Origin: a virus
Taxonomy: Duplodnaviria; Heunggongvirae; Uroviricota; Caudoviricetes
Length of the DNA: 4,246 nucleotides
Virus record (IMG/VR): IMGVR_UViG_2778261504_000015
Location: 1 to 4,246 of that record
Strand: one strand, 5' to 3'
Numbering within the stretch: position 1 is the stretch's first letter; each line of letters starts with the position of its first letter. Of the stretch, positions 419-4,246 are shown piece by piece. The position numbers and the translations under genes are program-made. The notes beneath the pieces were generated by a model. That model was not told where the DNA came from. It did not search any database and was given only the letters and a program-made list of their open reading frames with translations.

Positions 419-1162
419 ATGACACAGACTGAATCAGCGATTCTGGCGCATGCCCGGCGGTGTGCGCCTGCGGAGTCGTGCGGCTTCGTGGTGAGAACGC
501 CGGAGGGGGAGCGGTATATCCCTTGTGTGAATATCTCTGCAGAGCCGGAGGCGTATTTTCGTATTGCACCGGAAGACTGGCTGCGGGCAGAGATGCAGGG
601 GGAGATTGTGGCACTGGTCCACAGTCATCCCGGTGGTCTGCCCTGGCTGAGCGAGGCCGACCGGCGGCTGCAGATAAAAAGTGCACTGTCCTGGTGGCTG
701 GTCTGCCGGGGGGAAATTCATAAATTCCGCTGTGTGCCACATCTGACAGGACGGCGCTTTGAGCACGGGGTGACGGACTGTTACACGCTGTTCCGGGATG
801 CATACCATCTGGCGGGAATTGATATGCCGGATTTTGAGCGTGAGGATGACTGGTGGCGTAACGGTCAGAACCTTTACCTGGACAATATGGCGGTCACCGG
901 CTTTTACCGGGTGCCCCTGTCCTCTGCACAGGCGGGCGATATCCTGCTGTGCTGCTTTGGCGCATCGGTGGCCAATCATGCCGCCATTTACTGCGGCAAC
1001 GGTGAACTGCTTCACCATCTGCCTGAACAACTGAGTAAACGGGAGAGGTATTCCGAAAAATGGCAACGACGAACGCATTCTGTCTGGCGTCACCGCCACT
1101 GGCACGTATCTGCCTTCACGGGGATTTGCAACGATTTGGCCGCCGCCTCAGCCTGTATGTGA
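419..1162 (+). CDS. K: Tail tip assembly protein K: N-terminal JAB/MPN (JAMM) metalloprotease-like domain plus C-terminal NlpC/P60 (C40) cysteine peptidase-like domain, 247 aa as called
   Basis: ATG at 419 gives MTQTESAILAHARR..., 10 nt after the L stop, ending at TGA 1160-1162. A JAMM motif H-S-H-x7-S-x2-D (HSHPGGLPWLSEAD) is encoded at 620-661. NlpC/P60-like catalytic residues are Cys in GVTDCYTLF (codon 779-781), His in ANHAAIY (977-979) and the following LLHH. The track start at 371 is a TTG inside L and is not preferred. No obvious Shine-Dalgarno precedes 419, so translation may be coupled to L. Confidence 0.87.
   Translation: MTQTESAILAHARRCAPAESCGFVVRTPEGERYIPCVNISAEPEAYFRIAPEDWLRAEMQGEIVALVHSHPGGLPWLSEADRRLQIKSALSWWLVCRGEIHKFRCVPHLTGRRFEHGVTDCYTLFRDAYHLAGIDMPDFEREDDWWRNGQNLYLDNMAVTGFYRVPLSSAQAGDILLCCFGASVANHAAIYCGNGELLHHLPEQLSKRERYSEKWQRRTHSVWRHRHWHVSAFTGICNDLAAASACM
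1041..1048 (+). promoter_or_regulatory. Shine-Dalgarno for I (GGGAGAGG), embedded in K coding sequence
   Basis: Purine-rich GGGAGAGG lies 11 nt upstream of the I ATG at 1060. Confidence 0.5.
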
Positions 1163-1740
1163 ACACGGCAGCGGAAGCCATCCGTGCCCTGTCGATGCAG
1201 ATGCCGGGCTTTCGCCGTCAGATGAACGAAGGCTGGTACCAGATACGTATTCGCGGTGAGGACACGGCACCGGAGGCGGTGTACGCCCGTCTTCACGAAC
1301 AGCTGGGTGAGGGAACGGTCATCCACATTGTGCCGCGACTGGCCGGGGCCGGAAAAGGTGGACTGCAGATTGTGCTGGGGGCGGCAGCCATCGTGGGCTC
1401 TTTCTTCACTGCCGGGGCAACGATGGCGTTATGGGGTTCAGCCCTGGCAGCCGGTGGTTTTTCTGCCACCACGATGCTGTTTTCACTGGGGGCCAGCATG
1501 ATACTGGGTGGTGTGGCTCAGATGCTGGCCCCGAAGGCTAAAGTACCGGAGTACAAAAGCACGGATAACGGCAGACAGAACACGTACTTTTCCTCGCTGG
1601 ATAACATGATTGCACAGGGGAACCCGATGCCGGTGCCTTACGGTGAAATGCTGGTTGGCTCACGGCGAATCTCCCAGGACATCAGTACCCGTGATGAAGG
1701 CGGTGACGGGAAGGTGGTGGTTATCGGGCGGCAGGCATAA
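1060..1740 (+). CDS. I: Tail assembly protein I (ubiquitin-like N-terminal domain, Gly/Ala-rich hydrophobic C-terminal region), 226 aa
   Basis: ATG 1060 to TAA 1738-1740. The translation (MATTNAFCLASPPLARICLHGDLQRFGRR...GGLQIVLGAAAIVGSFFTAGAT...NGRQNTYFSSLDNMIAQGN...) resembles lambda gpI as I recall it. GGGAGAGG at 1041-1048 is a plausible Shine-Dalgarno. The start lies inside the 3' end of K in a different frame. Confidence 0.88.
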   Translation: MATTNAFCLASPPLARICLHGDLQRFGRRLSLYVNTAAEAIRALSMQMPGFRRQMNEGWYQIRIRGEDTAPEAVYARLHEQLGEGTVIHIVPRLAGAGKGGLQIVLGAAAIVGSFFTAGATMALWGSALAAGGFSATTMLFSLGASMILGGVAQMLAPKAKVPEYKSTDNGRQNTYFSSLDNMIAQGNPMPVPYGEMLVGSRRISQDISTRDEGGDGKVVVIGRQA

Positions 1741-1744: not shown

Positions 1745-1777
1745 GAAAAAATCCCGCAGTGACCGAAGGCTGCGGGA
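1745..1777 (-). terminator. Putative intrinsic terminator for minus-strand transcription (hairpin followed by T-run on the minus strand)
   Basis: Perfect 8-bp inverted repeat TCCCGCAG (1752-1759) / CTGCGGGA (1770-1777) with a 10-nt loop. On the + strand it is preceded by AAAAAA (1746-1751), which on the minus strand is a T-run right after the stem. No T-run follows it on the + strand. Confidence 0.35.
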
Positions 1778-1784
1778 ACAGAAA

Positions 1785-1880
1785 ATGAAGATTAACCACA
1801 GGGAGTTTTGTTTTTATTGGCCCGAAAAAACTGTAACGCCCGGGAATGATATCTGCCACGGGGGCGTACAGAAAATGTGA
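1785..1880 (+). CDS. Hypothetical 31-aa small ORF inside the intergenic segment (MKINHREFCFYWPEKTVTPGNDICHGGVQKM); very low confidence
   Basis: ATG 1785 to TGA 1878-1880, with a weak GGGAA a few nt upstream. It is below the ORF track size cutoff, has no recognisable motif and is not hydrophobic. It lies between the two hairpins and upstream of the + strand terminator. Confidence 0.12.
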   Translation: MKINHREFCFYWPEKTVTPGNDICHGGVQKM

Positions 1881-1910: not shown

Positions 1911-1941
1911 ACAGGCACCCTCCGGGGTGCCTGTCGTTTTT
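1911..1941 (+). terminator. Rho-independent (intrinsic) terminator, + strand
   Basis: Perfect 10-bp inverted repeat ACAGGCACCC (1911-1920) / GGGTGCCTGT (1925-1934) around a 4-nt loop TCCG, followed by CG then TTTTT (1937-1941). Read directly from the sequence; stability was not computed. Confidence 0.65.
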
Positions 1942-1985: not shown

Positions 1986-4246
1986 GTGGGTAAAGGTGGC
2001 GGCAAGGCGCACACGCCGGTTGAGGCAAAGGACAATCTTAAGTCCACGCAGATGATGAGCGTGATTGATGCCATCGGTGAGGGACCGGTGGAAGGTCCGG
2101 TGAAGGGGCTGCAGAGTATTCTGGTGAACAAAACCCCGCTGACGGACACGGACGGTAATCCTGTGATACATGGTGTGACAGCGGTCTGGCGCGCCGGGGA
2201 GCAGGAGCAGACACCGCCGGAAGGTTTTGAGTCATCCGGCTCTGAAACCGCACTGGGCGTGGAAGTGACGAAGGCAAAGCCGGTGACGCGCACCATTACG
2301 TCCGCGAACATTGACCGCCTGCGGGTTACCTTCGGGGTGCAGTCACTGGTGCAGACCACCTCACAGGGTGACCGTAACCCGGCATCCGTCCGCCTGCTGA
2401 TTCAGCTGCAGCGTAACGGTAACTGGGTGACGGAAAAGGATGTCACCATTAACGGCAAGACCACCTCACAGTTCCTCGCTTCGGTGATTCTGGATAATCT
2501 GCCTCCCCGCCCCTTTAACATCCGGATGGTCAGGGAGACGGCGGACAGCACCACGGACCAGCTGCAGAATAAGACGCTCTGGTCGTCATACACCGAAATC
2601 ATCGATGTGAAACAGTGCTACCCGAACACGGCGATTGTGGGGCTGCAGGTGGATGCGGAGCAGTTTGGCGGTCAGCAGATGACGGTGAACTACCATATCC
2701 GCGGTCGCATCATTCAGGTGCCGTCAAACTATGACCCGGAAAAACGCACGTACAGCGGCATCTGGGACGGCAGCCTGAAACCGGCATACAGCAACAACCC
2801 GGCCTGGTGCCTGTGGGACATGCTGACTCACCCGCGCTACGGCATGGGAAAACGTCTGGGGGCGGCAGACGTGGACAAATGGGCGCTGTATGCCATTGCG
2901 CAGTACTGCGACCAGACGGTGCCGGATGGTTTCGGGGGCACAGAGCCGCGGATGACCTTTAATGCGTACCTGTCACAACAGCGTAAGGCGTGGGACGTTC
3001 TCAGTGATTTCTGCTCGGCGATGCGCTGTATGCCGGTATGGAACGGCCAGACGCTGACGTTCGTTCAGGACCGCCCGTCGGATGTGGTGTGGCCGTACAC
3101 CAGCAGCGATGTGGTGGTGGATGATAACGGCGTGGGGTTTCGCTACAGCTTCAGCGCCCTGAAGGACCGCCACACGGCGGTGGAGGTGAATTACACCGAC
3201 CCGCAGAACGGCTGGCAGACCTCCACGGAACTGGTGGAAGACCCGGAAGCCATACTGCGCTACGGGCGCAACCTGCTGAAGATGGATGCGTTCGGTTGCA
3301 CCAGTCGCGGTCAGGCCCACCGTGCCGGGCTGTGGGTAATAAAGACCGGACTGCTGGAAACGCAGACGGTGGATTTCACGCTCGGGTCACAGGGGCTGCG
3401 TCACACACCCGGTGACATTATTGAAATCTGTGATAACGACTATGCCGGGACCATGACCGGCGGACGTATCCTGTCCATCGATGCCGCCAGCCGCACCCTG
3501 ACACTGGACCGTGAGGTGACCCTGCCGGAGACAGGTGCCGCCACGGTGAACCTGATTAACGGCAGCGGTAAGCCGGTGAGCGTGGCCATCACTGCACACC
3601 CCGCGCCGGACCGGATACAGGTCAGCACCCTGCCTGATGGTGTGGAGACATACGGTGTATGGGGACTCTCCCTGCCGTCACTGCGTCGTCGCCTGTTCCG
3701 CTGTGTCTCCATCCGGGAAAACACGGACGGCACCTTTGCCATCACGGCGGTGCAGCACGTACCGGAAAAGGAAGCCATCGTGGATAACGGGGCCAGCTTT
3801 GAGCCGCAGTCAGGCACCCTGAACAGCGTCATCCCTCCGGCAGTGCAGCACCTGACGGTGGAGGTGAGCGCAGCTGACGGTCAGTATCTGGCGCAGGCGA
3901 AATGGGACACGCCGCGGGTGGTGAAGGGCGTGCGCTTCAGTCTGCGCCTGACCAGTGGAAGCGGTCAGGACAGCCGTCTGGTGACCACCGCCATCACCGC
4001 GGATACAGAGCACCGTTTCAGCGGTCTGCCGCCGGGGGAATACACCCTGACGGTCAGGGCAATTAACAGTTATGGCCAGCAGGGCGAACCGGCCACCACC
4101 ACCTTCCGGATTAACGCGCCAGCAAAACCCGCCACCATTGAACTGACACCGGGCTATTTTCAGATAACGGCGGTCCCGCGTCTTGCGGTGTATGACCCGA
4201 CGGTACAGTTTGAGTTCTGGTTTTCGGAGACAAAAATCGCAGACAT
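1986..4246 (+). CDS. J: Host specificity protein J / central tail fiber (tail tip attachment protein), N-terminal ~753 codons; 3' end beyond window
   Basis: GTG at 1986 is preceded by the strong Shine-Dalgarno GGAGAGGGGG (1971-1980). It is the first canonical start after the in-frame stop TGA at 1878-1880. The translation [39 protein letters not shown]... stays open to the window end and closely resembles the lambda gpJ N-terminus as I recall it. It is absent from the ORF track only because it has no stop within the window. Confidence 0.92.

Follow-up and report, generated by a model that had tools for sequence, protein, structure and literature searches.

A predicted intrinsic terminator before tail gene J of a lambda-like prophage, its apparent counterpart in lambda and an adjoining PasB-type sRNA gene on the opposite strand

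It is well established for phage lambda that RNA polymerase modified by Q resists terminators. On the late strand of lambdoid phages, unmodified polymerase is stopped by the intrinsic terminator tR', which gives rise to the StxS/6S RNA (Sy et al. 2020, PMC7547250) and which Q overrides; tR' lies directly downstream of the constitutive promoter PR' and yields an abundant RNA. Phages also carry "morons", that is, inserted genes that bring along a promoter and a terminator of their own (Juhala et al. 2000, as cited in PMC4104026). Among sRNAs encoded by prophages, PasB of E. coli EPEC E2348/69 was described as Hfq-dependent by Pearl Mizrahi et al. 2021, whose Table S6 (PMC8550237) places it, in its PasB row, at NC_011601 1466343->1466261, on the minus strand, with a length of 83 nt, between E2348C_1436 and E2348C_1437. 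For E. coli EHEC Sakai, Tree et al. 2014 (PMC4104026) reported three mutually homologous Hfq-bound sRNAs, EcOnc22 (prophage Sp15), EcOnc23 (Sp14) and EcOnc24 (Sp11), the first of which ran at about 85 nt on a Northern blot and became less stable when hfq was absent.

We analysed a stretch of 4,246 nt, here called the window, which represents the tail-tip part of a lambda-like prophage and in which a rho-independent terminator had been predicted between the tail genes I and J (Table 1). The I-J spacer is 245 nt long in the window against 60 nt in lambda, hence 185 nt of extra DNA, and it is 100% identical to that of prophages of E. coli O26:H11 11368, O157:H7 and O111:H8, as well as to that of several Stx1a/Stx2a-converting phages. 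RefSeq annotates no feature inside it. The GTG start of J is preceded by GGAGAGGGGG (1971-1980), and no in-frame start codon for J was found between 1881 and 1986. Two ORFs of the spacer (31 aa, 1785-1880; 34 aa, 1846-1950) were rejected as coding, their starts and frames being different between variants.

Table 1. Position, strand and basis of the features considered in the window, together with the hairpin at the same junction of lambda
Feature	Position	Strand	Description and basis
Gene L, 3' end	to 408		RefSeq annotation, transferred from the identical O26:H11 region
Gene K, C40 peptidase	419-1162		RefSeq annotation, identical O26 region
Gene I, tail assembly protein	1159-1740	+	Stop TAA 1738-1740; RefSeq annotation, identical region
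I-J spacer (pasB cassette)	1741-1985	no strand	245 nt
PasB/EcOnc22-24 homologue	1746-1839	-	Aligned 1818->1746, 60/71 identical to E2348/69 PasB
Terminator of the PasB homologue	1746-1777	-	CCCGCAG/CTGCGGG (1753-1776), U6 (1751->1746); abuts the I stop codon
Probable pasB -10 box	1846-1851	-	TATCAT, aligned with TATAAT of relatives
Putative CRP-like site	1873-1894	no strand	AAATGTGAAGAAATTCAGAAAT; 0.01 expected by chance
Intrinsic-terminator-like element	1911-1941	+	Stem 1911-1920/1925-1934, loop TCCG, then CG and U5 (1937-1941)
Gene J, 5' part, tail tip/host specificity	1986-4246	+	GTG start 1986; RefSeq annotation, identical O26:H11 prophage
Lambda I-J hairpin with T-rich tail	lambda 15,472-15,500; also given as 15,463-15,492 (L002 1264-1293)	tail-gene strand	Sequence and folding

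The original prediction had described a perfect 10-bp GC-rich stem with a 4-nt loop and a run of five T, about 45 nt upstream of J, and both sequence and pattern scan confirmed it. Precisely, the arms ACAGGCACCC and GGGTGCCTGT form ten perfect pairs, seven of them G-C, and are followed by CG, TTTTT and GGGG, with the T run ending 44 nt 5' of the J start codon. Among the 4,246 bases there is no other inverted repeat of 8 nt or more whose arms are separated by no more than 12 nt, and the hairpin was the top-ranked site of the scan, which called 8 terminator-like sites in the window compared with 3.1 ± 1.5 in shuffled sequences. RNA 1905-1945 folded with -23.5 kcal/mol, against -12.2 ± 3.0 for the shuffles (z = -3.84; 1/200 shuffles folds as well), hence its stability is not poor. 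Rho-independent terminators have a GC-rich stem of about 5-14 bp, a loop of 3-8 nt and a U-rich tract that begins 0-2 nt behind the stem, as in the rule of our scan; here UUUUU follows the stem after CG, so that stem, loop and tract on the late strand are those of a rho-independent terminator, as had been claimed. The tract of the window is weak, having five T only and being offset from the stem by CG, and most relatives carry a better one (TGTTTTTGTG; also given as TGTTGTTTTTGTG and UGUUUUUGUG). The reverse complement folds too but then reads GUCAUGACGGAAUAAAA, without a U tract; since the tract is present on the plus strand only, the terminator is expected to act in one direction, on the tail-gene strand.

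The further claim that the compact lambda arrangement lacks such an element did not hold. The I-J spacer of lambda (TGATGCAAAATGTTTTATGTGAAACCGCCTGCGGGCGGTTTTGTCATTTATGGAGCGTGAGGAATG) contains the hairpin AAACCGCC-TGCG-GGCGGTTT and then TGTCATTTAT, about 22 nt upstream of the ATG of J, with a folding energy of -15.2 kcal/mol (z = -3.7; 0/200 shuffles as stable). All 80 of the 80 lambda-type junctions from IMG/VR keep this hairpin or a close variant, either as the same stem with a varying loop or as AGCCGCC-TTTT-GGCGGCT followed by TTGTTGTTTAT, the latter with a different upstream sequence; in the junctions of other Escherichia and Shigella genomes the hairpin is kept except for one degenerate copy (L220). 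The pattern scan called neither the lambda hairpin, probably because its stem extends into the T run, nor the replacement hairpin considered below, so that for these two "terminator" stands for folding together with a reading of the T-rich tail. At the I-J spacer the lambda records NC_001416 and J02459 have only CDSs annotated, a literature search for a described I-J terminator in lambda gave none, and the literature searched contained no experimental demonstration of termination at either the lambda or the window hairpin.

The two elements are alike in strand and in position, between the I stop codon and the J ribosome-binding site and 22-45 nt before J, and both consist of a GC stem, a 4-nt loop and a T-rich tail, which reads TGTCGTTTAT or TTGTTGTTTAT in lambda-type junctions and TGTTGTTTTTGTG in most relatives of the window. 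They differ in the stem, which in lambda has 8-9 bp (-15.2 kcal/mol) and in the window 10 bp of another sequence (-23.5 kcal/mol), and in the spacer, since that of lambda is without an sRNA gene whereas that of the window holds pasB. Judged from sequence, a terminator-type hairpin before J is the rule in this tail module, the window hairpin is the counterpart of the lambda one rather than an added checkpoint, and the EHEC version is a stronger copy adjoining an inserted sRNA gene.

As for the window-like junctions, we collected 80 IMG/VR loci with a window-like J, which have 37 different upstream sequences and 76 of which have enough flank. A terminator-type hairpin precedes J on the plus strand in 73/76 of them. 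PasB is accompanied by a homologue of the window hairpin, ending 41-65 nt before J, in 40/76, and by an unrelated hairpin, AAAACCCCGGTATC-TGCT-GATACCGGGGTTTCTCTTT, in 32/76; in one more locus the unrelated replacement hairpin lies behind an IS element. L070 has an IS transposase in its spacer. The replacement hairpin (-29.9 kcal/mol) reads as a terminator on both strands and has its own T-rich tail. It belongs to spacers of about 340 nt (L006, L028 and 31 other IMG/VR loci), where the switch to the replacement module occurs directly after ...AGAATTTTTAT and a second small hairpin, AGCATGG...CATGCTTTTC, comes after the first. The 3/76 remaining junctions carry a reverse-oriented sodC and no plus-strand terminator before J, as do two more found in the genome scan, in E. 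albertii and in a metagenome bin (L022, L038, L063, L183 and L184 in all); the product has the look of a lipoprotein-type Cu/Zn superoxide dismutase, an identity read off the translation by eye. Insertions have recurred at the I-J junction, which can hold pasB with either of two right-hand modules, sodC or an IS element. Since the sodC junctions go without the terminator, the element is dispensable for a working, or at least a persisting, junction.

Most copies of the spacer are 95-100% identical, and outside the hairpin the identity between variants is 70-80%. Spacers taken from ten phages, lambda included, form a mosaic with a mean column identity of 55%, in which the hairpin persists. Over 13 distinct homologous sequences, 97.7% of the stem cells are paired, compared with 35-49% in slid controls. 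Beside the pair of arms present in the window we found ACAGGCATCC/GGATGCCTGT, in which both sides are changed, G-U intermediates and one hairpin with a different loop; precisely, one stem pair (1918 with 1927) is changed on both sides, from C-G to U-A, with U-G intermediates, and G-U occurs at two further positions. As a test of covariation this is weak, since with little variation and a single two-sided pair 52/500 shuffles reach the observed score. The presence of unrelated hairpins at the same place is a stronger argument, and it points to selection on function rather than on sequence. Conservation reaches also to the left of the stem: positions 1871-1942 (72 nt) are 89-92% identical in phages whose spacer is otherwise diverged (H114, H115), and the block 1871-1910, directly left of the hairpin, is nearly invariant.

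The extra DNA of the spacer is the gene of an sRNA described before, read from the opposite strand. The genes E2348C_1436 and E2348C_1437 that flank PasB are I and J of prophage PP6, on the plus strand, and the Northern probe given for PasB in Table S6, AATCCCGCAGTGATCGCGGAGCT (PMC8550237), corresponds to the spacer's first hairpin as read on the plus strand; PasB therefore runs antisense to the tail operon. This probe matches 15/16 aligned bases at 1750-1765 of the window, which holds an 85% identical PasB homologue with a terminator (-14.0 kcal/mol, z = -3.4) and a predicted promoter, 90-165 nt to the left of the plus-strand hairpin. Its 5' end was placed at about 1839 on the basis of the -10 box; in E2348/69 the reported end corresponds to about 1824. 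As regards the promoter, TATAAT is found in E2348/69, in PhiR5_1 and in the PPompW_699 prophage, where TTCACA-N16-TATAAT scores 11/12; in the variant of the window the -35 is weak. The centre of the putative CRP-like site and the upstream end of the -10 box are 32.5 bp apart, about 3 bp more than in a classical class II promoter. Together with the pasB promoter it offers a reason for the conservation of the block 1871-1910 that is simpler than an RNA on the plus strand, and needs none. According to PMC8550237, the "nonactivating" culture condition gives more PasB than the "activating" one, a difference that the putative CRP-like site may explain. If the two conditions correspond to LB and glucose-containing DMEM, respectively, catabolite control would fit.

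From left to right the order would be the I stop, the leftward PasB terminator, the PasB body, the pasB promoter with the CRP-like site upstream of it, the rightward plus-strand terminator and the J ribosome-binding site, so that the plus-strand terminator closes, on the side of J, a small insert bearing pasB in opposite orientation. The cassette was found in 781/5426 complete E. coli genomes, at a median of 4 places per genome, and it is also present in Stx1/Stx2-converting phages.

EcOnc22, EcOnc23 and EcOnc24 all lie in I-J spacers of Sakai (L012-L014). If their published coordinates are taken at face value on NC_002695.2, their Hfq peaks fall on the plus-strand hairpin; we rejected this placement as an artefact of the genome version. 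The later dRNA-seq and Term-seq of Sakai from the Tree laboratory were aligned to NC_002695.1 (PMC7547250), and the 2014 coordinates behave as those of the same version; from 1.94 to 2.93 Mb, positions in NC_002695.2 are about 137 nt higher than the published ones. The shift was calibrated on three landmarks, which gave +135 to +146 nt: AgvB1 (about 1941921-1941981 in version 2, published peak 1941783-1941835), the identical HnrS copies EcOnc10 and EcOnc11 (summed shift 275) and the StxS1 3' end (published 2,925,944, tR' T run at about 2,926,079-2,926,084). After correction the EcOnc22 peak is at about 2,902,851-2,902,911 and the PasB homologue of Sp15, with 58/70 identical positions, at 2,902,857-2,902,926. 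Because the corrected peaks coincide with the PasB homologue, on the strand opposite to the hairpin, PasB of EPEC and EcOnc22/23/24 of EHEC Sakai are the same sRNA family.

This equivalence is not noted in the sources searched: the field for EHEC homologues is empty in the PasB row of Table S6 (PMC8550237), the EcOnc names do not appear in the 2026 preprint on Pas sRNAs (Zhu, Shabalina and Storz), and a literature search for the Sakai locus tags at I-J gave nothing. A search of Rfam with the window (E ≤ 1) and with 7 related loci (E ≤ 0.1) gave no match, which ruled out AgvB, AsxR, Esr41, IsrG and IS009 as the identity of the element. In addition, AgvB and AsxR sit at an insertion site downstream of PR' (PMC4104026), and HnrS (EcOnc10-12) lies elsewhere in the late genes, its Sakai locus being between the endopeptidase and DNase genes; hence neither family match nor prophage position placed the spacer with the anti-sRNAs AgvB/AsxR, Esr41 and HnrS.

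According to the original prediction, a short insert-derived transcript might end at the hairpin. This was not supported, since the sole documented RNA of the spacer, PasB/EcOnc22-24, is on the opposite strand and has another terminator: the hairpin is outside the PasB transcript (about 1824->1746, minus). The E2348/69 and Sakai loci share with the window the I-J spacer and the same plus-strand hairpin beside their copies, whereas the sRNAs themselves end at their own terminator (1777->1746 in the window) and do not include it. As far as they were searched, PMC4104026, PMC8550237 and the 2026 preprint by Zhu, Shabalina and Storz make no mention of the plus-strand hairpin. The rows listed in the EPEC RIL-seq tables hold no spacer RNA other than PasB, the Sakai Hfq CRAC list has no entry for the I-J spacer besides EcOnc22-24, and no published RNA or promoter using the plus-strand hairpin as a 3' end was found. 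A scan for sigma-70-like promoters facing the hairpin gave none in the window, E2348/69, PhiR5_1 and PPompW_699; plus-strand -10-like hexamers picked by hand were discarded, as they are not conserved between variants.

We consider it fairly probable that the hairpin works as a late-strand intrinsic terminator, which would halt unmodified polymerase before J in lysogens and let Q-modified polymerase pass. When the prophage is lysogenic or defective, polymerase lacking Q and moving rightward through I and the cassette would form the 10-bp hairpin and be released at the U tract, so that J would not be entered; upon induction, Q-modified polymerase from PR' would ignore the terminator and J would be made within the late transcript. 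Given the established biology of Q in lambda and the anatomy of the terminator, J would then be reached mainly by Q-modified polymerase. The base means of the EPEC RNA-seq data (I 4.8, J 15, PasB 482-1082), that is, near-silent I and J beside abundant PasB, fit a silent late strand in lysogens. The hairpin could not shield pasB from rightward transcription, since polymerase has already crossed pasB before reaching it; this speaks against the terminator reading, as do the short and offset U tract of the window, the thin covariation and the sodC junctions. Like tR', it is an intrinsic terminator by its anatomy and lies on the late strand; unlike tR', it is far downstream, within the tail genes, and no known promoter feeds it in lysogens. 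The likeness to morons is that a small autonomous insert, flanked by terminators and with expression from the prophage, sits within a late operon under Q antitermination; here, however, the cargo is an antisense sRNA, and the plus-strand terminator points away from this cargo and is not its own.

Several other readings of the same sequence were weighed against termination. Hairpins between cistrons are well known to protect segments of polycistronic mRNAs, and the stem-loop could accordingly act post-transcriptionally in the Q-driven late mRNA, by blocking 3'-to-5' exonucleases or directing processing; the tail-gene segment upstream of it would then be more stable than the 3.4-kb J message, which would set the stoichiometry. 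Such a role would explain why lambda-type and EHEC-type phages keep a GC hairpin though Q-modified polymerase would ignore a terminator. We regard it nevertheless as unlikely, because each of the three hairpin types has kept its T-rich tail together with the stem, whereas an element serving stability alone could do without a tail, and because the sodC-insert junctions are without any hairpin. There is even less reason to consider the hairpin a functionless leftover, that is, the terminator of an ancestral insert kept because the prophage copies are young and nearly identical. The 95-100% identity of most copies, the covariation score below significance (see above) and the sodC junctions that manage without a hairpin agree with it, but the stem stays paired within a mosaic spacer whose variants share 70-80% identity, and three unrelated hairpin types occupy the same position; its probability is accordingly low.

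A hairpin followed by a U tract is also the typical Hfq-binding 3' end of an RNA. The element might thus end a separate plus-strand RNA, either a 40-60 nt sRNA from 1871-1910 or a fragment of the I 3'-UTR which, being fully complementary to PasB, could titrate it. In favour of this are the conservation of 1871-1942 amid a diverged spacer and the existence of very short prophage-encoded sRNAs, of 51-60 nt (PMC4104026). On the other hand the plus strand of four loci has no promoter-like site, the best -10-like hexamers vary between variants, the pasB promoter and CRP-like site already explain the conserved block, and such an RNA is absent from the RIL-seq rows listed, from the Hfq CRAC list and from Rfam matches, hence we think this RNA quite improbable. 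Finally, the inverted repeat could act as double-stranded DNA, as the palindromic site of a dimeric regulator upstream of the pasB promoter, given its place beside the CRP-like site and some 70-95 bp upstream of where pasB probably starts. Changes that preserve pairing preserve a palindrome too, so they do not by themselves discriminate between RNA and DNA; the G-U intermediates, though, keep RNA pairing and break DNA symmetry. Moreover, the adjacent T tract is conserved, other cassettes swap the repeat for an unrelated hairpin with its own T-rich tail, and lambda has a hairpin at the same place without having pasB, so that an operator is the least probable of these readings.

Beyond termination as such, it is conceivable, at rather long odds, that the two outward-facing terminators bracket a self-contained and possibly CRP-responsive sRNA cassette, with the plus-strand one giving rightward transcripts an Hfq-binding 3' end. 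If this were true, the rightward RNA would be either an I 3'-UTR RNA, complementary to PasB over its full length, or else a very short sRNA originating in the invariant block, and the sense/antisense pair would switch PasB off as late or read-through transcription rises.

The plus-strand hairpin is, in summary of its standing, real, probably functional and of a familiar kind, in surroundings already described. The terminator alone matters little, being expected inside Q-antiterminated late operons and present at the same junction in lambda. More practical value lies in the by-products, namely the PasB/EcOnc22-24 equivalence, the Sakai version shift, the I-J insertion hot spot and the CRP-like site. 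The extra I-J DNA of 781/5426 complete E. coli genomes is now identified as a pasB sRNA cassette, and Sakai coordinates used without correction put the Hfq peaks on the wrong element. If the terminator is efficient, it would set the right-hand limit of rightward transcription through the cassettes in lysogens, a limit relevant to the reading of RNA-seq data from EHEC strains with multiple prophages.

We also ran a scan of GTDB genomes for distant junctions, which gave no junction type beyond those in IMG/VR; most of its hits were lambda or E. coli contaminants of unrelated assemblies. A lambda-type or EHEC-type J was observed in assemblies labelled Streptomyces, Neobacillus, Shewanella, Pseudomonas, Bradyrhizobium and others (L181, L185, L187-L200, L206-L209 and others), several of the contigs being of about 48.4-48.5 kb; J in such assemblies is almost certainly contaminating lambda or E. 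coli DNA. As a minor observation on the J leader, a tandem motif, CAGACAT-CAGACAG, lies at 1954-1971 of the window, between the hairpin and the J ribosome-binding site, and it is expanded to four copies (ATTCAGACATCAGACATCAGACATCAGACAGG) in one IMG/VR variant, so the length of the J leader is variable.
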